Assembly: GCA_905215695.1 (NCBI GenBank)
Contig: CAJMQN010000006.1
Span: 60,726-124,725 of the forward strand
DNA: 64,000 nt
DNA from: an uncultured bacterium
GTDB lineage: Bacteria > Bacillota > Clostridia > Christensenellales > HGM11417
Reading direction: 5' to 3'
The notes under the pieces are model-generated. The model was given only the letters and a program-made list of their open reading frames with translations. It had not been told where the DNA came from and made no database searches. This document shows, in pieces, positions 42,191 to 59,152 of this stretch. How positions within the stretch are numbered: position 1 is the first letter of the stretch; every line of letters starts with the position of its first letter. Made by a program: the position numbers and the translations under genes.

Positions 42191-42216
42191 TAACCGAAGA
42201 GACAAGAGGAGAAATT

Positions 42217-44226: not shown

Positions 44227-45131
44227 CCGCTGTCCGAAAGAAACCGGTGAATTGGCGGAGAGGAATCTTTTTGCTTGGAATGACCATTGTGCCCCTCCTG
44301 CATTTTCTTGTCTTTTACGTATATGTAAACTTCAATTCGGTGCTCATGGGGTTTCAGGTGTTGGAGGGCGGAGACCTCGTGTGGTCGCTCGAAAACTTTT
44401 CTCTCTTTTTCTCGCAGATTACGGACACTGAAACTATCATCTTTCAGGCGTTCGGCAACACGATGGTATTCTTTGCGGTACAACTTCTCGTCATCATGCC
44501 GCTGACCACCTTCATCGCGTACTTTATCTACAAACGCATACTCGGCTATCAATTTTACCGTATCATATTCTTTCTGCCGACCATACTTTCGACGGTTGTT
44601 CTGACCATTCTGTATTCCAATATTCTTGGCGTCAAGGGACCGATTGCCTGGCTCGTTCAGCGAATCGCAGGGACGCCCGTTCCACCGGAATTCTTTGCGG
44701 ACAGCCGCTACGCACTCTGGGCAATCGTGTTCTATGTCATCTGGACAGGGTTCGGAACAAATTTGATTTTGCTCGGCGGCGCAATGAACCGTATTCCCGA
44801 GGAGACCATCGAGGCGTCACGGTTGGACGGAGCCGGTCTCTTCCGGGAACTTTGGCAGATCATTTTGCCCATGGTCTGGCCGACGATGACCACGCTCATC
44901 GTGTTCACCTTTGTGGGAATCTTCACGACTTCCGGTCCGATTCTGCTCTTTACCAAGGGCAAATGGAACACCTACACCATCTCGTATTGGATCTTCGAAC
45001 AGGTCTATGCCAACAGCGGTCGCCCGGAGTACGCCTCTGCGGTGGGACTCGTGTTTACCGTGGTCGCGCTTCCCATCGTATTGGGCATAAAACGCCTCAT
45101 GGAACGCTGGCAGAGCGCCATTGAGTATTAG
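44217..45131 (+). CDS. carbohydrate ABC transporter permease (MalF/LplB-type)
   Basis: ATG at 44217 follows aaaggagaa. It has 6 TM segments and an EAA-type loop (EASRLDGAGLFRELWQIILP). Confidence 0.9.
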   Translation: MQMTAVRKKPVNWRRGIFLLGMTIVPLLHFLVFYVYVNFNSVLMGFQVLEGGDLVWSLENFSLFFSQITDTETIIFQAFGNTMVFFAVQLLVIMPLTTFIAYFIYKRILGYQFYRIIFFLPTILSTVVLTILYSNILGVKGPIAWLVQRIAGTPVPPEFFADSRYALWAIVFYVIWTGFGTNLILLGGAMNRIPEETIEASRLDGAGLFRELWQIILPMVWPTMTTLIVFTFVGIFTTSGPILLFTKGKWNTYTISYWIFEQVYANSGRPEYASAVGLVFTVVALPIVLGIKRLMERWQSAIEY

Positions 45132-45142
45132 GAGGAGGAAGT

Positions 45143-46003
45143 ATGAAACACAAATCCGCTCCCAAATCCGTTGCGCAGAGAATTGTGTTTGGCATCGTGT
45201 TCGCGCTGTTCGCGCTGTATGCGGCGACCATGCTGTACGCCTTCCTGTTCGCACTCTTCTCCGCACTGAAAACGCACGAAGAATTTGTCAATCACATGTT
45301 CGACCTGCCGCGTGATTGGCTGTTCTCCAACTTCGGGAACGCCTTCACCAAACTCAAGGTAAACCGCACGGATATGATCGGCATGATATGGAACAGCGTG
45401 TGGTACACAGCGGGAGGGACGGTGCTCTCTGTGGCGTGCGCGACGACGCTCGCCTATGTCGTTTCCAAATTCAAATTTGTCGGTCGCAATCTGATTTACG
45501 CAATCTCCATCGTCATGATGGTTTTGCCCATCGTCGGAAGTCTTCCCGCCACCTACAAGCTCATCAAGGGTTTGGGCTTGGACAATTCTCCGGCGATTCT
45601 CGTGACTTTCTGCAACGGCTTCGGGTTCAACTTCATCGTGCTGTACGGCTTTTTCCAAAACCTCTCTTGGAGCTACGCGGAGGCGGCGTACGTGGACGGG
45701 GCATCCGATTTCAAAACCTTTGCGGGGGTCATGCTCCCGCAGGCGCTGCCCGCGGTGGTCTCTCTCATCATTCTTGCGGCAATCGGGATTTGGAACGACT
45801 ATCAAGGACCGCTTCTGTACCTGTCGAACATGCCCACGCTCTCGGTCGGACTCTACGAATTTAACAACAATATGAAGTACAATTCGGACTATCCGACGCT
45901 GTTTGCGGGGCTGCTCATTTCTATACTGCCGATACTTGCGATATTTATCGTCTTTCAGGAAACCATCATGAGCAACACGGTTGCCGGCGGACTGAAGGGC
46001 TGA
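45143..46003 (+). CDS. carbohydrate ABC transporter permease (MalG/LplC-type)
   Basis: 286 aa with the EAA loop EAAYVDGASDFKTFAGVMLPQA and the C-terminus NTVAGGLKG. Confidence 0.9.
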   Translation: MKHKSAPKSVAQRIVFGIVFALFALYAATMLYAFLFALFSALKTHEEFVNHMFDLPRDWLFSNFGNAFTKLKVNRTDMIGMIWNSVWYTAGGTVLSVACATTLAYVVSKFKFVGRNLIYAISIVMMVLPIVGSLPATYKLIKGLGLDNSPAILVTFCNGFGFNFIVLYGFFQNLSWSYAEAAYVDGASDFKTFAGVMLPQALPAVVSLIILAAIGIWNDYQGPLLYLSNMPTLSVGLYEFNNNMKYNSDYPTLFAGLLISILPILAIFIVFQETIMSNTVAGGLKG

Positions 46004-46025
46004 AATAAAGAAAAAAGGAGAAAAA

Positions 46026-47600
46026 ATGATGAAAAAAATCAGAACCGTACTTTGCACGTTGATCGCCGTACTCCTGTGCCTGCCTCTCGCGACGGCATGC
46101 GGCAGAGAAAAAATCCTTGATTCGGAGGGGAACGAGGTCACCGACCCTTCCAAGATTATCGAAATCAGCGTATGGGATTCCGGACTCGGCACGAAGTTTC
46201 TCTACAACCTCGTCGATGCGTTCAAAGCGCAGAATAAGGGCATCGGCGTGACCGTTACGCCCTCGAGTTCGCAGGATACCTTCTACAACACGATTTCGGC
46301 GGGCGCGCGGGCAAACAGTTTTGACCTGTACTTTACCTACGGTCCGAAATTCCGTCAGTACTTTGAAGGGCAGCACAAGGACAAGAATTACCTCGAGGAT
46401 CTGACCCCCGTGTTCCGCTCCACCGCAACGGGGGACACGCAGACCATCGAGTCCAAATTTCCCGAGGCAATGCGCGAGACCCTGAAGGTCGGGGACAAAT
46501 ATTACGCGGGGCTGTGGCAGGCGAGCGCAAACGGACTCACCTACAACGCCGCGGAGTTTGCAAAACACCCGGAATGGAAACTCCCCAATACGACCAAGGA
46601 GTTACAAAATCTCGCGCTTGCGATTGCGGAGACGGGGAAAACTCCTTTTGTACATGTTCCCGGCTATTGGGAATATGTCTGGGCTGTTTGGTGGGCGCAG
46701 TACGATGGCGCGACAGCGCATCAAGATTTCTGGACAAAGGACTTTTTCGAGTACTTCAACGCCATGTACAAGGCGGGAAATTGGAATCAGAGTGCGGACT
46801 ACGTGACGCCGGGCGTCAAAAAAGCGCTCGATGCGCTGTATGCGCTCGTATCGCCGGAGGGCTACACGCTCAACGGCTCCAATACGACGGACTTTTCGAT
46901 TTTGCAGACCCAATATTTGAGCGGAGACGCGATGATGATGGCGACGGGCGGTTGGTTGGAAACCGAGATGGCGAAAAATCAGTCCGCCGGCAGTCAGGTT
47001 TCGGACAAGGATATCCGCTTCATGAAAGTACCCGTTCTCTCCTCGGTCGTGGAGTTGCTCGAAATCGAAACCGACGAGGAACTTTCCGCAATCGTCTCCT
47101 ATATTGACAACGGCGAGACGGGGGAAAAGCCCGCTTCGGACGCGGATATTGCCAAAGTGCGCGCCATGCGGAATATCACCTATACATCGGGACCCGAAAT
47201 GAACGTCTTTATTCCCGCCTACGCGGAGGGCAAAGAGGCGGCGAAAGAATTTTTAAAATTCGTATATTCGGATGCCGGAACGAAGATTTATGTGGATACG
47301 ACGCACGTCCTGCCTCCTTGGTATGCGGGGGACGCTTCCGCGCTGGACGTGTCGGAGTGGTCGGTATTCTCGAAGTCCCACCTCGAACTTCAAAAGTCCG
47401 CCAACTATATTTTCAAGGACTTCTCTCACCCGATCGTATATAACACGGCGCGTGCAAACGTATTTTACGACACGCCGGAGAGCAAATTTACCGCGGCATA
47501 CGCCAACGACCGCGAGACGGTCACAGCATTTTTGAGCCGGGAGATCGGACAGCTTTCAAAGGATTGGGCGGTATTCCTGTCCGCATCCGGTCTGAAATAG
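46026..47600 (+). CDS. extracellular solute-binding lipoprotein (large family-1 sugar SBP)
   Basis: 524 aa with a signal peptide and lipobox (LPLATAC-G). Its size and position after two permease genes match the LplA-like SBPs of Firmicutes. Confidence 0.85.
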   Translation: MMKKIRTVLCTLIAVLLCLPLATACGREKILDSEGNEVTDPSKIIEISVWDSGLGTKFLYNLVDAFKAQNKGIGVTVTPSSSQDTFYNTISAGARANSFDLYFTYGPKFRQYFEGQHKDKNYLEDLTPVFRSTATGDTQTIESKFPEAMRETLKVGDKYYAGLWQASANGLTYNAAEFAKHPEWKLPNTTKELQNLALAIAETGKTPFVHVPGYWEYVWAVWWAQYDGATAHQDFWTKDFFEYFNAMYKAGNWNQSADYVTPGVKKALDALYALVSPEGYTLNGSNTTDFSILQTQYLSGDAMMMATGGWLETEMAKNQSAGSQVSDKDIRFMKVPVLSSVVELLEIETDEELSAIVSYIDNGETGEKPASDADIAKVRAMRNITYTSGPEMNVFIPAYAEGKEAAKEFLKFVYSDAGTKIYVDTTHVLPPWYAGDASALDVSEWSVFSKSHLELQKSANYIFKDFSHPIVYNTARANVFYDTPESKFTAAYANDRETVTAFLSREIGQLSKDWAVFLSASGLK

Positions 47601-47614
47601 AAAAGGAGGGAAAT

Positions 47615-49951
47615 ATGAAAAAGAAAAGGGGTATCTTGGCGGCGCTTATATTGAGCGTGGCGATGGGCTGTATGGGGCTGTCCGGCGCGGCGAGTGCGGG
47701 CACTGTAGATGTGACGCTCCTCGAGGAGGATTTTGCGGGGACGGAACTCGACCCTGCGGCGTGGTATTCAAGAAGTTCGACCGGAATCTCGCTGGAGCAG
47801 GACTACATTGCTCTGCGGGTCAAAGACGGATATACGGGTACGGGCGTCGCAACGAAGGCGAAGCTCTCCGGGAGCGCCGCAGTGGAAATTGATGTCAAGG
47901 AATTGGACTGGGCGGATACAAACGGAAGTTTCCGGATTGCCTTCGGACTGCCCACAAATACCGGGAATTTCCACAATGCCTATTGGGAGGACGGCAAGGC
48001 AGACGGAATCTACCTGACCTTCAACAAGGACTGTTCGGACCATGCGATCAGGCTTGCGGGGCTAAAATCCTCGCTTTCCGGTCTGGTGGACGGACAGGGG
48101 AATCCGCTTGCGACCCCGACGCCCTATGCCTTTACGGACGTGAAAGCGCTCGCCGACCCCGCATCTCCCGACAAAATACGCGACAAGACTCTGCGCGTCG
48201 AATATGGGGAGGACGGAAGCTTTACGCTGTCTGCCCGCCCGTTCGGCGAATCGGGAGATTTCACGGTTATCGCCCGCACAACAGGCTCCAAACTTCGTGC
48301 TTTTCCCGAGGGTTATCTCTCGGTTCATTGCATGGAGTCCGCAAAAGGATTTCCCTTCATCGACATTCGGGACGTTCGGGTGTACGACAAGGACGGGGGC
48401 GCGGTCGCTGCGTTCGGAGAAAACGTAGGCAAGGATTATCAGACCTTTCGGCATTCCTTTACCGGTTCGATGAGTGCAGGCGCGAAGAACGCGCTCACCT
48501 TCGGCGAGAAGTACGGGAACGCAAACCCGCTCTTCATGAGCAAAAGAATCGTCGCTACCGATCCAAAGGACAGTGTGGAAAGTCTCGCGCAGATCTCTTT
48601 CGGATTTACCGCCAAGAAGTGGCAGGGCAACAAAAAATTCGGACTTCTGCTGGGCGCGGAAAAACAGTCTTCGGGCAACGTGGGGCAGGCAGGAACCTCC
48701 TTCTTCTATCTGACCAAGAGCACAGAGGGCTGGCAGTACGGCATGGACGCTTACGCGCAGGCGGATGTTCCGACGGCGGTGATTCCCGAGCGGTCCCTAC
48801 CGAAAGGAGTTCTCCCGAACGATTTGAATATTTCGCTCACGCTTGGAAGCAAGGGCACTCTCGAAGTGAAATTCAACGGGGAAAGCGCGTATTCCGCCAA
48901 TGACGCGGCGTATGCATATGACGGCTATGCCGGCTTTGCGATGACGGGAGACGAGACCTCGGCGGAATGCGGTGTTTTGGTGACAATCGGTTCTTTCCTC
49001 GCGGAAAACAGCTATTACGACCGCCCCGAGAACGCAAACGTGCAGACGGATTTCTCGGGCGACTCCTACAATACGAATCTCTGGAATATGCGTTCGGAAT
49101 CCTATATGCAGGACTTTTTGAACGGCATGTACGTGAGGGAAGGCGGTCTGGTATTCGACAACGTGGCGATGAACAGCTATATTTCGACCAAATTTCAGTA
49201 TTCAAACTTTGAACTGAAATACAGCGTAACGGACTTGCGACGAGAGGTAGTGACGGACCCGGCGACGGGCGCGAAACTCTATCCTGTATCTTCTTGGATC
49301 GGCGCGATGTTCGGGGCGGCGTTCCCGCAGGACGAATTCGGCAGAATGGAGTCAAGCGTACCGCTCATCTATCTTGAGGCGCCCGTGGATGCAAACACCT
49401 GGGACCGTCAAAGGCAGGGAACAGGATATGCGCCCACCCAACTCGTTGTTTTAAATGTCGGCAGGAGCTTCATCACGCCTCTCCCGTCCAAGTATGATTT
49501 TTGGGACCCGAGCAAGGAGGGCTTGACCCTTGATATTCGCATCCGTGTGACGGACCGCAGGCTCACGGTGGGTCTGAAGTACCGGCAGGAGGAGGAATAT
49601 ACGGACTTTGTTGACGAGGAGATGCCCCGGGGACTCACCGGGTATCTCTACCTCTGCGGAATGGGAAACAACTACTATCTTGCCCCGCATTCGGTGGGCG
49701 CGAGTTGCGGACATTTCACTTTGGACGATATCAAAATTACGAATTTGGATGAGGGGGCAAACCTGACCGAGGTGAGTTTCGCCTCCAATCGCCCGGATAC
49801 CGTTCCGGGAGACTATCCATACGTTGACAAAAACGACGACGCGGATTATCTTACAGGGGGCGGTTCCGGGTGCGGAAAGGGTGACGCGGCGTCCGCGTCC
49901 CTCTGTGCGGCGCTCCTTTGCGCAGCGTTTGTAATCGGGAGGAGAGGATGA
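47615..49951 (+). CDS. secreted 778-aa protein with ConA/LamG-like regions and a Cys-Gly C-terminal anchor/sorting tail
   Basis: ATG at 47615 follows aaggaggg. It has the signal peptide MKKKRGILAALILSVAMGCMGLSGAASA and two segments beginning ..DF.G...D...W.. that recall concanavalin-A-like lectin/glucanase folds (weak evidence). The tail is GGGSGCGKGDAASASLCAALLCAAFVIGRRG. Confidence 0.7.
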   Translation: MKKKRGILAALILSVAMGCMGLSGAASAGTVDVTLLEEDFAGTELDPAAWYSRSSTGISLEQDYIALRVKDGYTGTGVATKAKLSGSAAVEIDVKELDWADTNGSFRIAFGLPTNTGNFHNAYWEDGKADGIYLTFNKDCSDHAIRLAGLKSSLSGLVDGQGNPLATPTPYAFTDVKALADPASPDKIRDKTLRVEYGEDGSFTLSARPFGESGDFTVIARTTGSKLRAFPEGYLSVHCMESAKGFPFIDIRDVRVYDKDGGAVAAFGENVGKDYQTFRHSFTGSMSAGAKNALTFGEKYGNANPLFMSKRIVATDPKDSVESLAQISFGFTAKKWQGNKKFGLLLGAEKQSSGNVGQAGTSFFYLTKSTEGWQYGMDAYAQADVPTAVIPERSLPKGVLPNDLNISLTLGSKGTLEVKFNGESAYSANDAAYAYDGYAGFAMTGDETSAECGVLVTIGSFLAENSYYDRPENANVQTDFSGDSYNTNLWNMRSESYMQDFLNGMYVREGGLVFDNVAMNSYISTKFQYSNFELKYSVTDLRREVVTDPATGAKLYPVSSWIGAMFGAAFPQDEFGRMESSVPLIYLEAPVDANTWDRQRQGTGYAPTQLVVLNVGRSFITPLPSKYDFWDPSKEGLTLDIRIRVTDRRLTVGLKYRQEEEYTDFVDEEMPRGLTGYLYLCGMGNNYYLAPHSVGASCGHFTLDDIKITNLDEGANLTEVSFASNRPDTVPGDYPYVDKNDDADYLTGGGSGCGKGDAASASLCAALLCAAFVIGRRG
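49856..49948 (+). other. tripartite C-terminal signal, copy 1 (GCGKG motif, hydrophobic helix, RRG)
   Basis: The last 31 codons of the 778-aa protein. Compare the second copy at 56280-56378. Confidence 0.6.
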
Positions 49952-51333
49952 TGAAATTGAAAAAAATCGGCGCCTTGGTACTTGCTGCGGCAATGCTTCC
50001 GGCTGCGGGCTGCGGCAGAGTGGAAGCCGCGCCTGTACACGAGGCGCAGACGGTACATAGTTATACCTTTGACAAGCTCGGGAAAAACGTGATGCCTGTG
50101 GGCGGATATATCGGACCCTTCGGCGGCTACGGCTACAACGGAACGTATATGGAAAGCCTTATCACGGAAGAGCAGTATCAGACCGTAGCGGACTGCGGAC
50201 TCAACTTTCTCATTGGAATGAAACAGGACTATAACCTCAACCGGGAAGAGACAATCGCATCGTTGGAGCTTGCGGACGACCATGAAATTATGCTCTTTAT
50301 CAAGGACAGTTATCTCTATGATTTGAGTGCGTCCTACCGCGCCCCGGTTTCGAAAGCGGACTTTGAGGAACGCGTAAAGCTATATAGCGACTACGGCTCG
50401 TTTGCGGGACTGGTGGGCAGGGACGAACCTTTCGGCTTTGAGCTTCCCAACTGTCAGGCGGTTCAACAGCGTTTCGACGAGGTGTTTCAAAAAGAATCTT
50501 CGACGGCGCTCTACATGAACTCGTTGTCCTATCAGTGCCCGGAGGACTGGCTTGCCGGGGGACCGAACGGTGTCATTTCCGAAAAGTGGGACCTTGACAA
50601 GTACATGGAAGAATATTTCAAGGCGATGTCAGGTATGAAATTTTATTCCTATGATACCTATCCTTTCGTCAACGGCGGAATCCGCGGTACATACTTTGAG
50701 AATCTTCAGCTTGTGCGAGACATGACCTCGGAGGCTGGCATTCCGTTCTGGACATTCATTCAAGGCGGCGGCTACTTTGACAACGACCCGGGCTGGGACC
50801 ACCCGACGGAGGGCGGACTTCTCTGGCAGGTCTCGACCTCGCTTGCCTACGGTGCAAAAGGGTATCAGTATTTTCCTTACTGCCATCCCGCGGAATTTAC
50901 GCAGGCGCCCACAGGCGGTTCAAGTTTGATCGGAAGGTATGGAGAGAAGACGGCAACTTGGTTCTATGCGCAGAAGGCAAACAGACAGACCCAAGCGGTG
51001 GATCACGTCCTGATGAACAGCGCGCACATGGGCGTTATCTCAAACGGACAGAGTCCTGCGGGAATCCCCGAAGGCTCAACCATCGAGAGTTTCCGCGAAC
51101 TTACGAAGGTTTCGGGCGCGGATTCGATTGTCGGCTGTTTCGACTACGCGGGCAAAACGGCGCTGTATGTCGTAAACAATTCTGTGACGCAGGACAAGGC
51201 AAAAGTCACGCTGGAATTTACGGGAAATTATGGTTATGAAGTGATACAACGCGCGACGTCAAGGGATTTGTCCGGAAAATCGATCACACTCACGTTTGCT
51301 CCGGGTGAAGGCGCACTCGTGGTGCTGAAATAG
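49948..51333 (+). CDS. lipoprotein, putative TIM-barrel glycoside-hydrolase-like protein (paralogue of the ORF at 63250)
   Basis: The ATG overlaps the previous stop (ATGATGA). It has a signal peptide plus lipobox (LPAAGC-G) and shares blocks with the 63250 ORF (EEQY..VA(D/E)CG(L/F)N, DEP, (Y/F)D(T/S)YP). No named family is claimed. Confidence 0.65.
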   Translation: MMKLKKIGALVLAAAMLPAAGCGRVEAAPVHEAQTVHSYTFDKLGKNVMPVGGYIGPFGGYGYNGTYMESLITEEQYQTVADCGLNFLIGMKQDYNLNREETIASLELADDHEIMLFIKDSYLYDLSASYRAPVSKADFEERVKLYSDYGSFAGLVGRDEPFGFELPNCQAVQQRFDEVFQKESSTALYMNSLSYQCPEDWLAGGPNGVISEKWDLDKYMEEYFKAMSGMKFYSYDTYPFVNGGIRGTYFENLQLVRDMTSEAGIPFWTFIQGGGYFDNDPGWDHPTEGGLLWQVSTSLAYGAKGYQYFPYCHPAEFTQAPTGGSSLIGRYGEKTATWFYAQKANRQTQAVDHVLMNSAHMGVISNGQSPAGIPEGSTIESFRELTKVSGADSIVGCFDYAGKTALYVVNNSVTQDKAKVTLEFTGNYGYEVIQRATSRDLSGKSITLTFAPGEGALVVLK

Positions 51334-51349
51334 AAATGGAGGGAAGAGT

Positions 51350-52315
51350 ATGAAGAGGAGAATCGCGGCGGCACTGCTGTCCGCACTGCTTGTGTGCGCG
51401 TGTCTGGGGCTCCCGAGCGCGGCACAGGAAGCGGGAAGTTCGGAGGACACGCCCGTCAAGTTTCACTTTCTCGACGTCAACAGCCTGAACAAGGGAGACG
51501 GTCCCATCGGAAGCGCGGATTGTATCGTCATTGAGGACCACGGCAAAATCACCATGGTGGATGCCGGAACTCCCTACGACGTATCCGTGCAGAAGATATT
51601 CGACTATCTCGACGGACTCGGGGTGACGAAGATTGAACACTTGTTTTTGAGTCACCCGCACGACGACCACGGAGGCGGTATGCCCGCCGTCATTGAGAAA
51701 TACGACATCGGGACGGTATATTGTAAGGCGTCCGATTGGGATACGCTTCGGGACATAGAAATCGAATGGCGTACCCGTGAAATTTACGACGACGTGCTTC
51801 TCGCGGCGCAGCGCAAGCAAAACAGCGACGGCAGCACGGTGAAAATTGTGCATCCGGAGACGGACGGCGAGACCGTGACCGTGAGCGCGGACAGCAGTTT
51901 TGAAATCTGGAACTGCGAAGCGCCCTGGGAAAACAAACACTATCACCCGGAATTTAACGACTATTCCATGGTGATGAAGTACACTTACAAAGATGTCTCC
52001 GCACTTTTAATGGGGGACATCAACCGCACCTATGAAAGCTCGCTCCTCGGTCATGTGGGAAAGTGCGATATTTTCAAGGCGGCGCACCACGGCACAAAGG
52101 GTTCGGTATCGTCCTCTGCGCTGTTCGATGAAATAAACGCGTCTGTTGCGGTCGTTACCGGGCTCCGCGCAAACTTCAATGTCGGGGGCGCGGCGACGGA
52201 CAAGGTCATCACGGAAGTCCTCGAATCGCGCGGAATTTCTTACAAGATTACCGAGGACGGCGACGTGGTTGTGACGACGGACGGCAGAACCGTCTCGATA
52301 GCGCAGACAGCGTAG
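51350..52315 (+). CDS. secreted MBL-fold hydrolase of the ComEC/Rec2-associated type
   Basis: It has the signal peptide MKRRIAAALLSALLVCACLGLPSAAQ, the metal motif SHPHDDHGGG, and a later AAHHGT. Confidence 0.8.
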   Translation: MKRRIAAALLSALLVCACLGLPSAAQEAGSSEDTPVKFHFLDVNSLNKGDGPIGSADCIVIEDHGKITMVDAGTPYDVSVQKIFDYLDGLGVTKIEHLFLSHPHDDHGGGMPAVIEKYDIGTVYCKASDWDTLRDIEIEWRTREIYDDVLLAAQRKQNSDGSTVKIVHPETDGETVTVSADSSFEIWNCEAPWENKHYHPEFNDYSMVMKYTYKDVSALLMGDINRTYESSLLGHVGKCDIFKAAHHGTKGSVSSSALFDEINASVAVVTGLRANFNVGGAATDKVITEVLESRGISYKITEDGDVVVTTDGRTVSIAQTA

Positions 52316-52325
52316 GGAGGAAAAA

Positions 52326-55300
52326 ATGGCAAAGAAAAAAATAGCGATTTTAGGATTATCGCTCCTGTTTCTCGTGTCAGTCCTTACCGGGCTGGGACTT
52401 GGCGTGAACCGCCCCGCGTCCGCGGCAGATACTCTTGAAATCGCCGGAATTTCGGGGTACGAGGCGTCTGGAGACCGAAACGATACGACCGCAATCGTGA
52501 ATTTTTCAGGCACAGGCGCAGGCGCGGAGGGAGACGACTTGACGGATGTCGCCTCTGTCATGGACAATATTCTCGTCAACAATGCTTCGCTTTCGGCGAT
52601 TCAGTCTGCGGGACAGCTCAAATCCGTGACTCGCGGACCCGGTTTCAGCGTAAAAATTGTGGTAAACAGCCAAGTGCACACCTTTTTGATGACCTTGAAA
52701 GCAGGGCTTACGTTGGACGGATTCACTCTTACCGCGGACGCGGTTTACGAGAAAGCTGCGGACAACAGCTTCTCCTTGCGCAGAGAAGAACCTGCCGCGG
52801 CAAAGGTGCTCTATATCGGTTCGCAGGCTTTCTATTATTCAAGTTTGCCCACGCCGGAGGTCGCAAAAGCGTTTTTTCTGGTATTTAACAAGCCGGGAAC
52901 TGATACGGAAGCCGACCTTGTTGACATGCGCACGCGCATACTGTACAGTGACGGACAGGGGAACGAACAACCGGTTTACGACTTGTACAGAAACGGCGGT
53001 TACTTCAACGGCGAAGTGCAGTTCGGCATGATGCAGTACGTTGTTTATATGCCTTCCGCCTATCAGGTCGCAGGCGCAACTTTGACAGTCCCTGCCGGGC
53101 TGTCTCTCGCGGACGGCGTCAAAACGGCGGCTGAACAGATCTTTACTTTTGACGGGAACAAGTGGACGGAGACCACCGAACCCCCTGAATCTGCCGAAGA
53201 AGTGACGGTCACCAAGATTCAGAGTATCGGCGCGAACGGCGATTACTGGCGGGTCAAGGTGTTCTTCAGCGACCCCGGTGAAAATGCGGACACAGAGGGA
53301 AAGGCTCTCTACAAGCTCCGTCGCGAGGTGAAGTTGAACGGCGCGCTCGGCATACCCGAAGGGGATGCGGACAGCATCGTTAACTCCATTTATTTTGACG
53401 AAGTCGAAGGCGTGGCGACCGGAAATCTCAATCTCTATTTCAAGGGATACAAGCCGGGTGAAATGAACACCCTCGAACTTCCGGGCGGGCTGAATTTCGC
53501 AGGCGGAAAGGTCATGACGGAGTCTGCCGTGTTCTACAATCAAAGCGGCAACCTATGGTATGAAAAACAGAGCGACGCTCTCCCGCCCACGGCAACGAGT
53601 GCGGTCGAAGGCGGAACTTCGGAATACGACGGTGAAACGTACCGTCAGCTTCTCATCACCTTTGATTGGACGGGGAGCAACGGCGCCGCGCTGTACAGCA
53701 GTCTGTTTCCCTGGCTTCATAGGGTTACGCTCAACGGCGAACTCATCAATGCGGAATCTTACGCGGATTTGGACGCCGCGGGCAGCGGCGTGAAATACTA
53801 TGGCAGTTCGTATTTTGACAGTCAGAATATGCGCGTGTTAAAGTGTTATTTCCCCGAATCCCTGCGTTCGGGCGGCATTGATGAACTTGTACTCCCTGCC
53901 GGACTCCGCCTCGACAACGAAAAGGATACGAAGGAAAAGACCTTTTACGGTTATCGCGGCGGCTGGTACAACACGCGGGAAGAGGCGGAAAACGCGAAAG
54001 CAAATATTTTGGGCGTGACGACCAAGAACATCTATGAGCTGAACCGGGACGGCGACCAAATCCACGATTCGGACGCATACATGGTGGTAGGCATCCGATT
54101 CGACCGCGCAGGCGCGAACGATATTTCGAGTGACGCAACCGCACTTTCTGTTCTGCGCGCGGGCGTCCTTTTCAACGGCAAACCGCTGACGGGAAATCTT
54201 GTGAATTCCTGCTATTTCGAGGACTCCGATTCTCAAATACTGAAATTTTGGCTGCCTTACTCGAACTGTAATTTTGACGGATACGACACACTGTATGTCC
54301 CCGGCGGATACACGCTTTCGGGCGGATATGTGGAGGAGGGTAAGACCTTCTACGGCAGGGCGGGCGTCTGGCAGGAGAGCGCAGAGGGACTGCCGCAATG
54401 GAACTTTGCGACCCTCGACAAACTTTATGACCCGGGTATCCCGCGCAACGCGGACGACGGTACTGTCCTGCGCGACGTCGAAATTTACTTTACGACGCCC
54501 GGCAATAACAGCGCGCACGAGAGTATTCTCACGCTGTGGTTTTTGCAGCGGAACATGACCCTGAACGGCGAAAAGATGTACAAAGCGGGAAACGGGTTCT
54601 ATTTTGACGACAACAATCTGTACCGGTTTTTCGCGCGCACCGCGGATTCTCTCCGCAGGTCGGACGGAACCCCGGACGAACTCTATCTTCCCGGTCCTTT
54701 CATGGTCGGAGACAAGATTTTTCCGGGCGGCGTGACCTACTACGGTCGTTACGGCGTATGGAGCGAGGACGCGTCCGAGCTTCCCGCGGTTACCGAGACG
54801 GGCAAGGTCTGCGAGGTTGTCGAACAGGGACAGGAAGAGGGGTTCTTCCGGCTGGTCAAACTGAAATTCGATATTTCTGCCGCCGCGTCGGACGGACAGG
54901 CAAACGTTGACGTGCCGGGTTACGCGCTCTACGAACTGCGCAGAGGGATTCGGATCAACGGAAATCCGATTCGCGAAGAGGTGATGAACAGCGCATATTT
55001 CAACCCGGAAGCCGAATACAACTGGCAGTGGTTCGTGGTGTGGCTGCATCAATCCGACCGGAATTCCTCCGGCTACGACGAACTGTATATCCCCGGCGGG
55101 CTGTGGATGAAGGACGGCAAGCGTACGGGCGAGGGACAGACGCTCTATTTCTATGAGAATGCGTGGCATTTGGAAAAGCCCGCCTTAAAGCCTTCTTTTA
55201 CCGAACTTGCGGGAGATGAGTTCCTCGAAGGAAGTATTCTGTTCAATCGTCCGGCGGCAGAGACCGGCGACGAATTCTCTGTGGGCGAAACGGCGCTCAA

Positions 55301-56381
55301 ATTTAACGGAAAGACGGTCGCTGAGCTCAATGCGGTGGAAACGGTCGTAACTCTCGAATGGGTCTCTGTGACAGAGCTGAAATATACCATCGCAAAATCT
55401 GCGCTCTCCGACGGCAAACTCAACCTGAAAATCGAAAAAGGTTTTGTGTTCCCGAACGGAGAGAGCCTTGGGGCGGAAACATTGCTGTACTATGATTTCG
55501 GCGAGGCGTTCTGGCTCAAAAATTCTTCTCCGATTGAAAAAGAGGTTTGGGAGGGCGTGCTTCCCGACAGCGTGGAGAAACCTGTCGCGCAGGCGGGCGG
55601 AGCATACATGATTGCGGTCAACTTCAAGAGCAACCTTGTCTCGCCCGAAAATTCTTATCTGCGTCTCGCAAATGTTGCGTTGCCCGCAAATACTCTGTTG
55701 GCGAGGACGCAAGCGCATGTTCCCGGCTATTATTACGACGCGGAGATTCTTGAATTCATGATTCGTTTCGGAGTGCGCGACTCTGTCCTCGACGGAATCC
55801 GTCTAAATGGCAAAAGCCTGCGCGAGATGATGGCGGAAGAGACTTCCGAAGCCCTCGCAAAGGACTGCCTCCAAGTGGATTTCCGAGGGAGTCAGCTCCT
55901 CATCTTCGTGACAGGGGAGAGCAAGTTCAAAATAACAGACCCCGAGGGCATGGAACTTGAGCTTTTGAAAAATCTTTCCTTCCAATCCGGCAAGTGGCTG
56001 AACGCAGACTCGAAATACGTTTACCGTTCGGGAGAATGGAGGACGGAGGACAGCGAAGAACCGACGCCCGACCCGGATAAAACTGCGGCGGAAGCGGTGG
56101 TTGCGCTCATTGATGCGATTCCCGCAGACATAACGCTTTCGGATAAGTCCAAGGTATCCGCGGCGCGGGCAGCTTATGACGCTTTGACCGCCGCGCAGAA
56201 GGAGCTTGTTCCCTCGGCAAAGCTCAACAAACTCACAAGCGCGGAGACGGCGCTCCGCGCACTCGAGTCGCCCGATGAACCGAAAGGCGGGTGCGGCGGC
56301 TGCGGCAAGGGAGGAAGTTCGGCATTGCTGTCCGTTCTGCTCCTGCTCGGCGGCTTGGCGTTCGTAGGAAAAATCAGATAG
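52326..56381 (+). CDS. 1351-aa secreted repeat protein with a Cys-Gly C-terminal anchor/sorting tail
   Basis: It has a signal peptide (MAKKKIAILGLSLLFLVSVLTGLGLG..ASAAD) and at least 5 tandem units of about 130-147 aa. A helical segment follows (AVVALIDAIPADITLSDKSKVSAARAAYDALTAAQKELV). The tail is PKGGCGGCGKGGSSALLSVLLLLGGLAFVGKIR. There is no LPXTG motif. Confidence 0.8.
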   Translation: MAKKKIAILGLSLLFLVSVLTGLGLGVNRPASAADTLEIAGISGYEASGDRNDTTAIVNFSGTGAGAEGDDLTDVASVMDNILVNNASLSAIQSAGQLKSVTRGPGFSVKIVVNSQVHTFLMTLKAGLTLDGFTLTADAVYEKAADNSFSLRREEPAAAKVLYIGSQAFYYSSLPTPEVAKAFFLVFNKPGTDTEADLVDMRTRILYSDGQGNEQPVYDLYRNGGYFNGEVQFGMMQYVVYMPSAYQVAGATLTVPAGLSLADGVKTAAEQIFTFDGNKWTETTEPPESAEEVTVTKIQSIGANGDYWRVKVFFSDPGENADTEGKALYKLRREVKLNGALGIPEGDADSIVNSIYFDEVEGVATGNLNLYFKGYKPGEMNTLELPGGLNFAGGKVMTESAVFYNQSGNLWYEKQSDALPPTATSAVEGGTSEYDGETYRQLLITFDWTGSNGAALYSSLFPWLHRVTLNGELINAESYADLDAAGSGVKYYGSSYFDSQNMRVLKCYFPESLRSGGIDELVLPAGLRLDNEKDTKEKTFYGYRGGWYNTREEAENAKANILGVTTKNIYELNRDGDQIHDSDAYMVVGIRFDRAGANDISSDATALSVLRAGVLFNGKPLTGNLVNSCYFEDSDSQILKFWLPYSNCNFDGYDTLYVPGGYTLSGGYVEEGKTFYGRAGVWQESAEGLPQWNFATLDKLYDPGIPRNADDGTVLRDVEIYFTTPGNNSAHESILTLWFLQRNMTLNGEKMYKAGNGFYFDDNNLYRFFARTADSLRRSDGTPDELYLPGPFMVGDKIFPGGVTYYGRYGVWSEDASELPAVTETGKVCEVVEQGQEEGFFRLVKLKFDISAAASDGQANVDVPGYALYELRRGIRINGNPIREEVMNSAYFNPEAEYNWQWFVVWLHQSDRNSSGYDELYIPGGLWMKDGKRTGEGQTLYFYENAWHLEKPALKPSFTELAGDEFLEGSILFNRPAAETGDEFSVGETALKFNGKTVAELNAVETVVTLEWVSVTELKYTIAKSALSDGKLNLKIEKGFVFPNGESLGAETLLYYDFGEAFWLKNSSPIEKEVWEGVLPDSVEKPVAQAGGAYMIAVNFKSNLVSPENSYLRLANVALPANTLLARTQAHVPGYYYDAEILEFMIRFGVRDSVLDGIRLNGKSLREMMAEETSEALAKDCLQVDFRGSQLLIFVTGESKFKITDPEGMELELLKNLSFQSGKWLNADSKYVYRSGEWRTEDSEEPTPDPDKTAAEAVVALIDAIPADITLSDKSKVSAARAAYDALTAAQKELVPSAKLNKLTSAETALRALESPDEPKGGCGGCGKGGSSALLSVLLLLGGLAFVGKIR
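53193..55181 (+). repeat. five clear tandem protein-level repeats inside the 1351-aa ORF
   Basis: The recurrent pattern is ..L(Y/S)..R..(V/I/M).(L/F/I)NG....YF(D/E/N)....(D/N)(E/T)L.(L/V/I)PGG......(F/Y)Y...G.W.(E). The NG motif falls at aa 338, 470, 617, 747 and 878. Nucleotide similarity between units is low. Confidence 0.65.
56280..56378 (+). other. tripartite C-terminal signal, copy 2 (GCGGCGKG motif, hydrophobic helix, KIR)
   Basis: The last 33 codons of the 1351-aa protein, with the same motif order as 49856-49948. Confidence 0.6.
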
Positions 56382-56390
56382 AACAGAACA

Positions 56391-56425
56391 GGGGCGGAGG
56401 ATTTCCTTCCGTCCCTTTCGTTTTT
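56391..56425 (+). terminator. intrinsic terminator after the 1351-aa ORF
   Basis: Stem ggggcgga pairs with tccgtccc (one G-T pair), then tttcgttttt. Confidence 0.65.
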
Positions 56426-56486
56426 ATCACAATGCGCGAAATATTTTTCAAAAGTTACGCATTTTGCGCGCAAACAAAAAAAAGGA

Positions 56487-56515
56487 TTGACCTTGCGGTG
56501 GAGCACCGCTATAAT
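56487..56515 (+). promoter_or_regulatory. candidate sigma-A promoter for the Gfo/Idh/MocA-GH13 operon
   Basis: ttgacc (56487-56492), a 17-nt spacer, then tataat (56510-56515). Confidence 0.55.
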
Positions 56516-56543
56516 AGAGAATGAATTTGCAGGGAGGAAAGAG

Positions 56544-57566
56544 ATGAGAAAGGTAAAATGGGGCATCGTAGGAAGCGGCGGTATCGCGGAGCGCAGGACG
56601 ATTCCGGGGCTGTTGAAGTGCGAAAACGCGGAGCTTGCCGCGTGTATGGACAGGGACGGGAACGCCGCCCGGCGGGTGGCGGATCAATTCGGGGCAAAGC
56701 TCGCATGCACGGAACTCGGCGAACTGCTTGCCGCGGAACTCGACGCGGTGTATATTGCGACGCCCGTATTCGCGCACGAGGAGCAGGCGCGCGCCGCGCT
56801 CGCCGCGGGCAAGCATGTGCTCGTCGAAAAGCCGCTCGCCATGAACGCGCTTTCGGCGGCAAGCCTTGTGGAGAGCTTTCGGGAGAAAAACCTGCTGCTG
56901 ATGGCGGGGTATATGATGCGTTACCACAACCTGCACGGAGAGATGAAGCGCATTCTCTCGGAAGGCGGCATCGGTACGCCCGTGAGCGCGGATTTACAGT
57001 TCTCTTGTTGGTATCCTCGAGTGTCGGGGAGCTGGCGACAGGACAGGGCAAAGGGGGGCGGCGGCGCGGTCATGGACCTCGGCGTGCACTGCCTTGACCT
57101 GCTGTCCTGGTTGACCGACGCCAAAGTGAAAGAGGTAAAGGCTTTTTGCGCGAATCAGGTGCAGGATTACGAGGTCGAGGACGGCGCGAATATCCTTTTG
57201 ACCCTTGAAAACGGGATTCTCGCCCGGGTGCAGGTCAACTTCAACGTGCCGGACGCCCTTCCCTCGCGGGTGGAGCTGAAGGGCACTGCGGGCGCTCTCG
57301 TCGCCGAGGGCACTCTCGGGCAGACGGAAAGCGGCAGTCTGACCTGGCTCTACGCGCCGCAGAAGAGCTACGACGCGGCGCAGAATAACCCCGAACCCCG
57401 AAAAACCGTCTTTCCCGGCGGAGGCGGGGATATTTACGCAAAGCAGGTCGCGGACTTTTCCCGGCGGGTGCTTGAGAAAAATTTTGACTGTTCATTTGCG
57501 GAGAGTTCCGTCGAGGTACAGCGATTGGTTCAGGAAATATACAGAAATTCGGAGGAAGGAAAATGA
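56544..57566 (+). CDS. Gfo/Idh/MocA-family oxidoreductase (paralogue 2)
   Basis: ATG at 56544 follows gggagga and gives MRKVKWGIVGSGGIAERRTIP (Rossmann fold). It has the EKP motif VLVEKPLA. Its stop overlaps the GH13 start (ATGA). Confidence 0.85.
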   Translation: MRKVKWGIVGSGGIAERRTIPGLLKCENAELAACMDRDGNAARRVADQFGAKLACTELGELLAAELDAVYIATPVFAHEEQARAALAAGKHVLVEKPLAMNALSAASLVESFREKNLLLMAGYMMRYHNLHGEMKRILSEGGIGTPVSADLQFSCWYPRVSGSWRQDRAKGGGGAVMDLGVHCLDLLSWLTDAKVKEVKAFCANQVQDYEVEDGANILLTLENGILARVQVNFNVPDALPSRVELKGTAGALVAEGTLGQTESGSLTWLYAPQKSYDAAQNNPEPRKTVFPGGGGDIYAKQVADFSRRVLEKNFDCSFAESSVEVQRLVQEIYRNSEEGK

Positions 57567-59152
57567 ACAAGTGGCTGAAGGACGCAATTATCTATCAGGT
57601 TTATCCGCTGACCTTCTGCGACGCAAACGGGGACGGAATCGGCGACCTTGCGGGCGTGGAGAGCAAGCTTGACTATATCAAAGACCTTGGGGCGGACGTT
57701 ATCTGGCTGAATCCCATCTATCCCTCGACCTTTACGGACGGCGGGTACGACGTGACGGAATTCTGCGATATCGACCCGCGCTTCGGCACGCTCGAGGATT
57801 TCGACTCCTTGGTTGCGGCGTGCAAGAAGAGGGGGCTTCGTCTCGTTCTCGACTTCGTGCCCGGACATACCTCTTACAAACATCCGTGGTTCGAGAAATC
57901 CGCGACCTTCGAGCCGAACGAGTATTGGGACCGCTACATTTGGACGGACAGCGTTTTCAATAAGTACGCGGACAAATCCATTCACGGCTTTTACGACCGC
58001 GACGGGGGATATGTGGTCAACTATTACGCCACGCAGCCCGCGCTGAACTACGGTTTCAATCGATTGACCGACCGTGCTCCCGAAAGTCCCTACGACTGCG
58101 GGGACAAGTGGAAGATGCACTACACGGACCCCCGACTCAAACCTCTGCGCGAGGGGATTGTTGCCGCGCTGAAATTCTGGCTGGACCGGGGAATCGACGG
58201 ATTCCGCATGGACTGCGCGAATTCTCTTGTCAAGGAGTGCCTGCCCAATTCGCCCCGGGACGAGGATCTCGAGGGACTTTTGTGGGTGTGGAAAGAAATA
58301 TTCGCCGCTCTGCGCCCCGCCTATCCCGACGCCATGTTCATCGCGGAATGGATTTGCCCGGAAAATTCCGTGGGTAAGGCGGGATTTGACCTCGACTACT
58401 TCGGGCACGACATGCCTTGGTACAACGCGCTCTTCCGCAACACGCCGGGTTCCAACATTCTGCGCGGACTCGAGCGCGGCGAAAACTATTTTTCGGAGAA
58501 GGGCGCGGGGTCGGTCTCGGAATTTCTGCGGTACTGCGAGAGCCTTTGGACAAAATTGGACGGAAAGGGATATTTCTCTGTGCCGAGCGGGTACCACGAC
58601 GTCATACGGCTCGCAAAGAACAAGACCGAATCGGAATTAAAGACGGCGTTTGCCTTTCTTTTGACCTTCAAGCACGTACCGCTCGTGTATTACGGGGACG
58701 AAATCGGCATGACCCAACGCGAGAACATCAACCGTGACGGCGGATACGTCCGCACGGGTGCGCGCACGCCCATGCAGTGGACGGACGGAAAGAACCGCGG
58801 GTTCTCTTCTGCGCCCGAAAAAGACCTCTATCTGCCCGTAAACGGGAATGCGGGGGAATCCGTCGAGTCGCAAAAAGCGCGTCCGGATTCGTTGTACAAT
58901 CTCGTCAAGAGACTGACAGCCCTTCGCAAGGCGCACGCCGCCCTGTGCGCGGACGGGTGTATCCGAATTCTCGCGGAAGGGTATCCGCTTTGCTACGAAC
59001 GGTTTGACGGGGAAGAACGTTTTTTGGTCTGCGTCAATCCGTCGGCGGAGTCCCGTCCGATTGTCGGGGCGTATTCGGAAATCGTTTATGCAGAGCATTT
59101 TGACGAAAAAAATCGCGAATTGAGCGGGGGCGGAATCCTGATTGCGCGTTAA
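57563..59152 (+). CDS. GH13 alpha-glucosidase / oligo-1,6-glucosidase-like enzyme (cytoplasmic)
   Basis: N-terminus MNKWLKDAIIYQVYPLTFCDANGDGIGDLAGV. It has GH13 regions DFVPGHTS (I), GIDGFRMDCAN (II, nucleophile Asp), FIAEW (III, acid/base Glu) and SGYHD (IV). Confidence 0.85.
   Translation: MNKWLKDAIIYQVYPLTFCDANGDGIGDLAGVESKLDYIKDLGADVIWLNPIYPSTFTDGGYDVTEFCDIDPRFGTLEDFDSLVAACKKRGLRLVLDFVPGHTSYKHPWFEKSATFEPNEYWDRYIWTDSVFNKYADKSIHGFYDRDGGYVVNYYATQPALNYGFNRLTDRAPESPYDCGDKWKMHYTDPRLKPLREGIVAALKFWLDRGIDGFRMDCANSLVKECLPNSPRDEDLEGLLWVWKEIFAALRPAYPDAMFIAEWICPENSVGKAGFDLDYFGHDMPWYNALFRNTPGSNILRGLERGENYFSEKGAGSVSEFLRYCESLWTKLDGKGYFSVPSGYHDVIRLAKNKTESELKTAFAFLLTFKHVPLVYYGDEIGMTQRENINRDGGYVRTGARTPMQWTDGKNRGFSSAPEKDLYLPVNGNAGESVESQKARPDSLYNLVKRLTALRKAHAALCADGCIRILAEGYPLCYERFDGEERFLVCVNPSAESRPIVGAYSEIVYAEHFDEKNRELSGGGILIAR

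Follow-up and report, generated by a model that had tools for sequence, protein, structure and literature searches.

Two large secreted proteins of an uncultured member of the Clostridia end in tails built on the same plan, in which a Gly-rich motif containing Cys is followed by a hydrophobic helix and a few basic residues at the very C-terminus. Does this tail act as a protein-sorting signal, and if so, to which of the known classes is it related? An earlier note on this DNA had read the tail as a sorting signal not yet assigned to any class. That interpretation is supported by the analysis described here, which covered a stretch of 64,000 nucleotides (hereafter the window) together with related loci and public databases.

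Two secreted proteins in a glycan-utilisation gene cluster

The two proteins, here called P1 and P2, are encoded in one gene cluster:

40265-59152, forward strand: glycan-utilisation gene cluster with P1 and P2, recognised by Pfam
47615-49951, forward strand: P1, secreted, 778 aa, a body of tandem LamG/concanavalin-like beta-sandwich domains plus the C-terminal tail
47615-47698, forward strand: N-terminal Sec signal peptide of P1, MKKKRGILAALILSVAMGCMGLSGAASA/G, read by eye from the sequence
52326-56381, forward strand: P2, secreted, 1351 aa, tandem beta-sandwich modules followed by a helical stalk and the tail
52326-52424, forward strand: N-terminal Sec signal peptide of P2, MAKKKIAILGLSLLFLVSVLTGLGLGVNRPASA/A, likewise read by eye

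The cluster opens with a GH20 enzyme, a rhamnosidase-like enzyme, two ABC permeases, a lipoprotein solute-binding protein and P1, and continues with a 461-aa lipoprotein, a secreted MBL-fold protein, P2, a GFO/IDH/MocA oxidoreductase and an alpha-amylase-family enzyme. Its core, from the rhamnosidase-like enzyme through the two permeases, the solute-binding protein and P1 to a lipoprotein of about 460 aa, keeps this order in every related lineage, whereas only a relative of the window species and the Scatosoma-like loci also have GH20, the MBL protein and P2.

Translation of P1 starts at an ATG (47615) preceded by the ribosome-binding site AAGGAGGG and ends at a stop codon at 49949-49951; this TGA overlaps the ATG of the next gene at 49948. 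The N-terminal signal peptides that the earlier note had assigned to both proteins are borne out by a K-rich n-region, a hydrophobic core and an A-x-A site (ASA/G in P1, ASA/A in P2). In the orthologue alignment the A-x-A/G site of P1 is invariant (A29/G30 there, the numbering being offset by 1). A lipobox reading of the P1 signal peptide was ruled out, as its internal Cys19 varies among orthologues; because this Cys is not conserved, we assign the peptide to the signal peptidase I type.

The bodies of P1 and P2 are unrelated, as had been claimed (BLASTP best E = 0.13). No match to P1 was found in Pfam or NCBIfam scans, and its AF2 model is all-beta (pLDDT 61), with laminin LG and neurexin LNS domains as the best Foldseek matches (E = 4e-10). 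P2 consists of at least six tandem copies of a beta-sandwich module of about 125 aa; the repeat model has a pLDDT of 75, and a fold search with it gave no significant PDB match (best E = 0.29). Sequence searches of the PDB with P2, with the 461-aa partner and with P3, a third tail-bearing protein described below, gave no match either, and database records attach no name to any of these proteins.

The tail and its conservation

The earlier note had placed the two tails at 49856 and 56280, and translation confirms both positions. Positions 49856-49951 encode GGGSGCGKGDAASASLCAALLCAAFVIGRRG and a stop codon, the C-terminal end of P1, and positions 56280-56381 encode PKGGCGGCGKGGSSALLSVLLLLGGLAFVGKIR and a stop codon, the C-terminal end of P2. 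The parts of the tails are as follows:

49856-49882, forward strand: P1 signature GGGSGCGKG, with the invariant Gly-Cys at 49868-49873 (the Cys is residue 753)
49886-49939, forward strand: P1 hydrophobic uncharged stretch AASASLCAALLCAAFVIG, 18 aa
49940-49948, forward strand: P1 basic C-terminal end, RRG
56286-56312, forward strand: P2 signature GGCGGCGKG, with Cys at 56292-56294 (C1323) and 56301-56303 (C1326)
56310-56369, forward strand: P2 uncharged stretch GGSSALLSVLLLLGGLAFVG, 20 aa, with a mid-helix Gly-Gly
56370-56378, forward strand: P2 basic C-terminal end, KIR

When the DNA encoding the two tails was compared, no extended identity was found, and there has therefore been no recent cassette transfer between the two genes.

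Fifteen distinct tails were collected. Their conserved core is [G/S]-C, doubled to C-G-[G/S]-C in the P2 family, and it is followed by 0-6 spacer residues, 15-23 uncharged residues and 2-4 Lys/Arg at the end. The distance from the Cys to the C-terminus is 25-29 residues in all 15, and exactly 25 in the three proteins of the window genome. Upstream lies an acidic, Pro/Ser-rich disordered linker. Gly occupies position -1 to the Cys in 13 of the 15 tails, mostly as part of a G-G. This Gly-Gly may stand up to about 8 residues ahead of the uncharged stretch, which itself frequently contains a mid-helix GG or Pro; Gly and Pro make up 14.5% of it over the 15 tails (a raw share without a control set), and Pro occurs within the helix in 3 of 15.

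Across the P1 and P2 alignments and the 15 tails the Cys is invariant, while nearby linker residues vary freely. Every Cys is retained in orthologues at 41-46% identity, with motifs such as GGCSG, AGCAG, GCGGCSNS, GCGGCTGT and SCGSCTGT, and the same is true of all full-length strain variants listed in two 90%-identity clusters. The Gly-rich motif had been described as containing an invariant C-G-K-G; the invariance applies to [G/S]-C, whereas C-G-K-G is limited to this species. Over the final 45 residues of P1, just three columns (G, C and one Ala) are invariant among six sequences of about 45% identity. The Ala lies in the hydrophobic stretch. In a four-sequence alignment of P2, C1323, G1324 and C1326 are invariant, and both Cys are present in 16 of the 16 P2-family sequences on record (15 listed cluster members and P0013), including variants such as GGCGDCG and GGCCGCG.

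How often such a tail would arise by chance was estimated by applying the expression [GS]C.{0,8}[^DEKR]{15,23}[KR].{0,6}$ to 2,000,000 random 40-mers of window composition. It matched 534 of them, which corresponds to 0.01 expected among the 39 window proteins, compared with 2 observed. Given an anchor, the chance of finding [GS]C at the right place is about 0.02 per protein.

Distribution among unrelated proteins

The tail is not confined to P1 and P2. A protein search with P1 gave 11 homologues, and all 10 whose C-terminus is on record (44-46% identity) carry the tail, as do the P2 homologues at 98%, 84% and 41% identity. In JGI metagenomes the P1 family was found at 6 loci, one of which (L027) gave two new tail proteins; the same metagenomes contained no member of the P2 family. 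P3, of 1501 aa, is encoded on the same contig of 142 kb, 3 kb beyond the end of the window. The tail is thus shared by three unrelated proteins in the window genome and by five cargo families overall, all pairwise unrelated by BLASTP: P1 (LamG-like), P2 (repeat), P3, a 785-aa metallophosphoesterase and another C-terminal fragment in L027. The hosts are several lineages of uncultured Clostridia, uncultured Firmicutes and Candidatus Scatosoma, and because they encode lipoprotein solute-binding proteins they are apparently single-membrane cells. The cargo is best read as large Sec-exported glycan-binding or hydrolytic surface proteins of a clade of uncultured gut Clostridia.

A tail HMM built from 14 tails and run against 5300 six-frame ORFs matched these tails only. 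Its matches end at most 3 residues from the C-terminus, with a single exception, a short secondary match that lies within a genuine tail protein; among all remaining ORFs the highest score was 7.9 bits. In 1.84 billion representative proteins the profile recovered the two training families alone at E <= 0.001, but with 34 positions it lacks the power for this to show that the tail is absent elsewhere. A protein search with the tail alignment headed by a 40-aa row scored 1080 candidates, none at E <= 10, and a poorly placed pattern from the tail alignment found no match in viral contigs. A degenerate DNA pattern for the tail was rejected as a probe of the metagenome collection, since by estimate it would match by chance at least thousands of times.

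Curated sorting models and sorting enzymes

As a class, tripartite sorting signals combine a dedicated, co-distributed enzyme with three features of sequence. These three are seen here, since several unrelated signal-peptide proteins of one genome share a short conserved signature, a helix and basic residues that close the chain. Nevertheless, in scans of NCBIfam r20 and Pfam no curated C-terminal sorting model exceeded its cut-off on a whole protein, so that there is no clean match to a described CTERM class. For most tails the best-scoring curated models are those for MYXO-CTERM. TIGR03901.2 gave 13.6, 16.2, 16.0 and 6.8 bits against a cut-off of 20, and TIGR03382 (GC_trans_RRR, cut-off 15.85) gave 18.3 bits on one isolated tail (P0004) but only 8.2 on full-length P0004 and 7.7-8.9 on the other tails. 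The C-terminal ends of several MXAN_ models of MYXO-CTERM-anchored families also match. Furthermore, the MYXO-CTERM-type combination of an invariant Cys near the C-terminus, an uncharged helix and a basic cluster was found in 15 of 15 tails. Sequence homology to MYXO-CTERM was considered and dropped, as the tail of Myxococcus xanthus TraA scored at noise level on the tail HMM (7.4 bits); the likeness is therefore architectural rather than demonstrable homology.

Other models gave less. Synerg-CTERM (TIGR04564) reached at best 15.8 bits, on one tail, against a cut-off of 22.5. An LPXTG-like pentapeptide ([LN]P.[TSA][GANS]) is absent from every tail, in agreement with the earlier statement that neither P1 nor P2 has LPXTG. 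The LPXTG_anchor model TIGR01167 scored 16.7 bits on one isolated tail (cut-off 15.9), and its matches cover only the helix and basic part (profile positions 12-34), leaving the motif positions uncovered. GlyGly-CTERM (TIGR03501) had no match at E <= 10 in the 15 tails; for CGP-CTERM there was neither a C-G-P in these tails nor an HMM match, and Firmicu-CTERM did not match them. The models PGF-CTERM, PEP-CTERM, IPTL-CTERM, Loki-CTERM, Rumino_NPXTG and LPxTATN remained below cut-off on the helix and basic part only. GVDTG, with a match that also spans the motif region, reached 16.5 bits against a cut-off of 29.

The window had been said to encode no sorting enzyme. Consistent with this, Pfam found no sortase, CPBP, rhomboid or exosortase domain in its 42 ORFs, and a scan of multi-TM ORFs in the window gave no further candidate. 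The search was extended with Pfam and with a scan for multi-TM proteins bearing EExxxR, FxxxH and HxxxN motifs; no sorting-enzyme candidate was found in 83 kb of the source contig or in 27 related loci, and these loci (about 550 kb, partly redundant) contain no myxosortase-like gene. The only motif match, at 8910-9659 on the minus strand of locus L025, is spurious, since it lies antisense inside a solute-binding protein gene.

A candidate Cys-dependent anchoring signal

Taken together, these observations indicate that the tail is very probably a selected, functional signal for Cys-dependent anchoring. On balance it also seems to be processed, and a CPBP protease as the enzyme responsible may be proposed tentatively. 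The explanation that we favour, by analogy with described systems, is that the tail is a so far uncatalogued form related to the Cys-containing tripartite sorting signals, operating in apparently single-membrane bacteria. The N-terminal signal peptide would direct Sec export of the cargo, whereupon the helix would serve as a stop-transfer anchor. The basic end would face the cytoplasm, and the Cys would lie immediately outside the membrane. Next, the Cys would be modified at its thiol, most likely with a lipid, and an intramembrane protease encoded elsewhere would cut off the helix, the protein remaining held by its modified C-terminal Cys. We infer this order, lipidation followed by helix removal, from the analogy. 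By the same analogy, with the myxosortases MrtX, MrtS and MrtA, the protease would most likely be a glutamic endopeptidase of the CPBP/Rce1 type. Counting against processing is that loss of the helix is unneeded for surface display in a single-membrane cell.

The most serious alternative, which we nevertheless consider somewhat unlikely, is that P1, P2 and their like are type I membrane proteins held by a plain, unprocessed C-terminal anchor. The helix would be kept, and the Cys would have a different role, for example in bridging co-encoded surface proteins by an intermolecular disulfide or a metal, or in reversible S-acylation. A hydrophobic helix with a basic end suffices as an anchor in a single-membrane cell, and no processing enzyme lies near any locus. 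Moreover, the sugar-uptake operons that encode P1, P2 and P3 also encode lipoproteins, which makes a membrane-proximal complex plausible. However, the presence in five unrelated families of an invariant [G/S]-C, held 25-29 residues from the C-terminus, typifies a site recognised by an enzyme and not an anchor, and a GG or Pro that repeatedly breaks the helix near its middle would suit a protease substrate. The closest database likenesses are to Cys-type sorting signals that are cleaved, and in a strict gut anaerobe an extracellular disulfide is unlikely to be stable.

It is also conceivable, if improbable, that the tail belongs to an undescribed sorting pathway of these apparently single-membrane gut Clostridia. 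In it, the C-terminal Cys of glycan-capturing surface proteins would be joined covalently to a wall polymer or a membrane lipid, while one enzyme or a pair of enzymes, not orthologous to the myxosortases, would remove the helix. Such a pathway would represent a new family of sorting enzymes for the Bacillota, alongside or instead of sortase.

We regard as quite improbable that the tail is processed in a manner other than that of MYXO-CTERM and CPBP proteases. A rhombosortase-like rhomboid might cut at the Gly-Gly and transfer the protein to a lipid head group, or a sortase- or exosortase-like transpeptidase might link it to the wall or to a polymer of the wall, the Cys forming part of the recognition motif. 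The prevalence of Gly at position -1, mostly as G-G before the Cys, is in keeping with this, as is the layout of signal peptide, linker, motif, helix and basic end common to all these systems, and the one isolated tail above the TIGR01167 cut-off points the same way, though through its helix and basic part only. Yet the tails lack an LPXTG-like pentapeptide, the TIGR01167 match misses the motif positions, and the GlyGly-CTERM and PEP-CTERM models show no motif-level match. In GlyGly-CTERM (TIGR03501) the GG abuts the helix, unlike the GG of these tails, which can lie up to about 8 residues upstream of it. Also weighing against such processing, it is the CPBP-processed class that is defined by an invariant Cys (10.1101/2023.06.07.544157).

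Finally, a compositional coincidence of Gly-rich linkers with generic membrane anchors is scarcely credible: the motif is short and tail-profile searches of large protein databases gave nothing beyond the training families, but the idea is effectively refuted because of the conservation of the Cys, both in orthologues of 41-46% identity and in every full-length strain variant listed, and is further at odds with the excess over chance in the window and with three more unrelated families bearing the tail.

If the favoured reading as a relative of the Cys-containing signals is correct, a member from the Clostridia would widen this class to apparently single-membrane Bacillota, and would add a second route of C-terminal anchoring beside sortase in Gram-positive gut bacteria. 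Because no outer-membrane step exists in such a system, its Cys-modifying step could be separated from type II secretion, and separating the two would help with a question left open for MYXO-CTERM. The tail would also identify giant proteins that have no relatives in Pfam, NCBIfam or the PDB as components, displayed on the surface, of glycan-foraging loci, and a new curated HMM for it would improve the annotation of gut metagenome-assembled genomes.

Comparison with known systems

With LPXTG proteins and sortase A, the tails share their layout and cell context, in which the protein is exported by Sec and then retained by its helix and basic end. However, in place of an LPXTG-like pentapeptide they have Gly-Cys and 0-6 spacer residues. 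N-terminal lipoproteins (lipobox [LVI][ASTVI][GAS]C; Lgt, Lsp) likewise place [G/A/S]-C at the outer face beside a membrane helix, but with mirrored topology, as the helix of the tails is C-terminal to the Cys. In addition, the tails lack a hydrophobic lipobox upstream of the Cys, and their linker at that place is acidic and polar. The operons of tail proteins also encode classical lipobox lipoproteins.

In the literature consulted, Cys-type sorting signals are reported only from two-membrane bacteria and Thermococcales archaea. Synerg-CTERM (TIGR04564, MrtS) and JDVT-CTERM (MrtJ) resemble the tails in having a Ser/Gly-rich cluster that ends in an invariant Cys, then a helix and a basic end. 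They differ in that the spacer is missing from Synerg-CTERM, whose Leu-rich helix contains an invariant Pro, that a DP motif is present in JDVT-CTERM, and that both occur in two-membrane lineages and are linked to type II secretion.

The likeness to MYXO-CTERM (TIGR03901/TIGR03382) extends to the N-terminal signal peptide, the disordered linker, the uncharged helix, the basic cluster at the extreme C-terminus, and a Gly-Cys with an invariant Cys that is often doubled (GCGC in MYXO-CTERM, C-G-[G/S]-C in the Clostridia tails); in both cases the signal is found on many unrelated surface proteins. MYXO-CTERM is processed by the myxosortases MrtX, MrtC and MrtP, which are CPBP/Rce1-like glutamic intramembrane endopeptidases. 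MrtX cuts it in a Cys-dependent way, and Lgt is the leading candidate for lipidation of the Cys (PMC11980579). Nevertheless, MYXO-CTERM is restricted to Myxococcota and Bradymonadales with a myxosortase (core model NF040914), whereas the tails described here occur in Clostridia, where apparently neither an outer membrane nor a type II secretion step is present to account for a need for release. MYXO-CTERM also has an Arg-rich basic end, whereas that of the Clostridia tails is short and mixed in Lys and Arg (KIR, RRG, RKKDEE).

As regards cell type, the nearest parallel is CGP-CTERM (TIGR04288) of the Thermococcales, a Cys-containing tripartite C-terminal signal in a single-membrane cell. It is archaeal and shorter, and has an invariant Gly-Pro directly after the Cys, whereas C-G-P occurs in none of the 15 tails. 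The same logic as for MYXO-CTERM has been predicted for CGP-CTERM and MrtA in single-membrane archaea, and this system provides a precedent for a Cys-linked anchor that replaces the helix in the absence of an outer membrane (10.1101/2023.06.07.544157).

A cysteine-containing tail shared by unrelated secreted proteins

The large secreted proteins P1 and P2 end in a tail that consists of a [G/S]-C signature, an uncharged hydrophobic helix and a short Lys/Arg end. This tail is real, conserved and common to several protein families, and as far as curated models and the papers examined show, it is the first such signal in Clostridia. The carriers found in this genome are the following.

Tail-bearing genes of the source genome
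47615-49951: P1, 778 aa, ATG start with AAGGAGGG ahead
52326-56381: P2, 1351 aa
L014:14641-19146 (window-equivalent 67007-71512; L014 is a stretch of the source contig that reaches past the window): P3, 1501 aa, 3 kb past the window end on the same 142-kb contig

Translation places the tails of P1 and P2 where the earlier note had put them, and both proteins begin, as it held, with typical Sec signal peptides ending in A-x-A (judged by inspection). Their bodies are indeed unrelated (best BLASTP E = 0.13). That of P1 models as tandem LamG/concanavalin-like beta-sandwiches (pLDDT 61; matches to laminin LG and neurexin LNS, E = 4e-10), with pLDDT below 50 from residue 715 to the end in the AF2 model. 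In P2, a beta-sandwich module of about 125 aa (window 53187-55523), whose F, N-G, G, L, Y and W positions never vary, occurs in at least six tandem copies. This module, modelled as a small beta-sandwich (pLDDT 75), has no significant match in PDB and may be an undescribed surface-repeat domain.

The tail is not confined to P1 and P2. Viewing the source contig to 10 kb beyond the window, via the last complete window gene, revealed P3, which ends in EEKGGCKSPSYELIGCLSLLLAGAAAFRKIS, is unrelated to P1 and P2, and has no Pfam match or PDB relatives; by eye, it contains repeated LamG-like and Big_2-like stretches. Two more carriers lie in a metagenome locus, L027: a 785-aa calcineurin-like metallophosphoesterase ending in SSSGGCGSSVSCAAGAALFLFFGAMLLKKKRS, and a gene ending in GKTGGCGSIISAGIIGGSALAAAAVVFTRRKKRG. 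The five tail-bearing cargo families are pairwise unrelated.

Part of L027 (8717-10460, 1744 bp) is 99.6% identical to the related locus L006, with unrelated sequence on both flanks. The identical stretch comprises the 3′ part of a solute-binding protein gene and the first ~460 nt of a P1 orthologue, whose reading frame then breaks and is followed by the tail-bearing 3′ end of a different gene. This looks like either a chimeric assembly or a genuine rearrangement, and the host organism of the two L027 tail proteins is therefore uncertain.

Conservation and statistical support

A search of a 5.8-billion-protein collection returned 11 P1 homologues, mostly of 44-46% identity, and the tail is present in all 10 whose C-terminus is on record; additional P1 orthologues were found in genome and metagenome loci. 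When the last 45 residues of six P1 sequences are aligned, only the G, the C and a single Ala within the hydrophobic part are invariant, the rest being variable. P2 has close homologues of 98% and 84% identity, together with 41%-identical homologues of 1801-1803 aa in Candidatus Scatosoma-like contigs. Because the tails of the latter differ after the Cys (GGCGGCSNS, VGCGGCTGT, VSCGSCTGT), the C-G-K-G previously described as invariant proves to be species-specific. What never varies is the Cys, which stands after a Gly as a rule and after a Ser once, and which is doubled in the P2 family as C-G-[G/S]-C. Every Cys is retained in all full-length sequences listed in two 90%-identity clusters, including the variants GGCGDCG and GGCCGCG.

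Across 15 distinct tails, 25-29 residues separate the Cys from the C-terminus (25 without exception in the three proteins of the window genome), the uncharged stretch spans 15-23 residues with 14.5% Gly plus Pro, frequently as a mid-helix GG or Pro, and the end carries 2-4 Lys/Arg. Ahead of the tail there is always an acidic linker rich in Pro and Ser.

Among 2 million random 40-mers with the composition of the window, 534 match a regular expression for this layout ([GS]C, at most 8 residues, 15-23 uncharged residues, K/R, end), and thus 0.01 matches are expected among the 39 window proteins, versus 2 observed. An HMM built from 14 tails, run on 5300 six-frame ORFs of the window plus 27 related loci, matched these tails only, all ending within 3 residues of the C-terminus except for one short secondary match near the N-terminus of a true tail protein. 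The best other ORF scored 7.9 bits. Searches of large protein databases with the short tail profile, which gave nothing beyond the training families, lacked power.

Genomic context

The window is chromosomal and of Clostridia type (tgt-yajC-SCIFF-secDF, recJ, relA, pnp, ftsK, recA, RNase Y), and related genomes are recorded as uncultured Clostridia, uncultured Firmicutes and Candidatus Scatosoma. By Pfam, P1 and P2 lie within a glycan-utilisation cluster ordered as AraC regulator, GH20, rhamnosidase-like enzyme, two ABC permeases, lipoprotein solute-binding protein, P1, 461-aa lipoprotein, MBL-fold protein and P2. Its core, running from the rhamnosidase-like enzyme through the lipoprotein that follows P1, occurs in all related lineages; only some also have GH20, the MBL protein and P2. 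P3 is the last gene of the next ABC sugar operon.

Other genes of the window and related loci
49948-51333; L009:12414-13829 and 13840-15168 (related locus); L014:10884-12272: ~460-aa lipoprotein and similar-looking gene
51350-52315: secreted MBL-fold protein, its gene conserved in the operon between those of P1 and P2
2653-2820 and 2871-4199: SCIFF (six-cysteines-in-forty-five) peptide gene and radical SAM/SPASM maturase, between yajC and secD, a typical Clostridia marker
2129-2503: protein of 124 aa lying between yajC and the SCIFF gene, with four transmembrane segments predicted; no Pfam family, kept in related contigs
60245-62239: 664-aa ORF heading the second ABC sugar operon; no Pfam match or signal peptide; also in an 84%-identity relative (L004)
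L006:21189-22361: first part of a 2560-aa lipoprotein that contains Flg_new and LRR repeats and lies 9 kb downstream of the L006 P1 orthologue, its C-terminus outside the covered DNA

The conserved ~460-aa lipoprotein always comes after P1, and the overlap of its ATG with the stop codon of P1 (ATGA) suggests translational coupling of the two. It has no match in Pfam, NCBIfam or PDB and may represent a family of glycoside hydrolases or binding proteins not described before. The gene is duplicated in Scatosoma-like loci, and the next operon holds a 462-aa gene similar in appearance, with an alike C-terminal end. Precomputed Pfam matches of the MBL-fold protein include a weak Anti-Pycsar Apyc1.

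A possible sorting mechanism and its relatives

The sequence itself shows a Sec signal peptide, then a linker, a Cys signature, a helix and a basic end. Stop-transfer anchoring would leave the Cys just outside the membrane, its thiol would then be modified, and an intramembrane protease would take off the helix. That the tail is a selected, Cys-dependent anchoring signal is very probable. By analogy, we lean slightly towards its being processed as well; a CPBP enzyme as the agent is plausible but less than even. The main rival, less likely, is that the helix is kept as the anchor and the Cys has another role. Two points speak against the processing model. A single-membrane cell could simply retain the helix, and the lipobox-type solute-binding proteins argue indirectly for such an envelope. 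Furthermore, no candidate processing enzyme was found in the window, as previously reported, nor in 83 kb of source contig or ~550 kb of related loci.

When 15 tails and several full-length proteins were scanned against NCBIfam release 20 and Pfam, no whole protein reached a model cut-off, in keeping with the earlier reading of the tail as unassigned. The recurrent best likenesses are Cys-class models: MYXO-CTERM TIGR03901.2 (13.6, 16.2 and 16.0 bits; cut-off 20), TIGR03382 'GC_trans_RRR' (18.3 bits for one isolated tail, 8.2 for its full-length version; cut-off 15.85) and Synerg-CTERM (15.8 bits; cut-off 22.5). Several MXAN_* 'MYXO-CTERM-anchored' family models also match, at their C-terminal ends. 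LPXTG_anchor, PGF-CTERM, PEP-CTERM and most other matches span the helix and basic part only. In the papers examined, Cys-type signals are described only from Myxococcota, Bradymonadales, some Proteobacteria, Synergistota and Thermococcales, with no mention of Firmicutes or Clostridia.

In MYXO-CTERM, the CPBP protease MrtX carries out a Cys-dependent cleavage, and lipidation by an Lgt-like enzyme has been proposed (PMC11980579). The Clostridia tail resembles MYXO-CTERM in architecture, although homology is not demonstrable, with the Myxococcus xanthus TraA tail scoring at noise (7.4 bits) on our tail HMM. The processing model proposed here for Clostridia is patterned on MYXO-CTERM/MrtX and on archaeal CGP-CTERM/MrtA, and the archaeal case implies that this logic works without an outer membrane.
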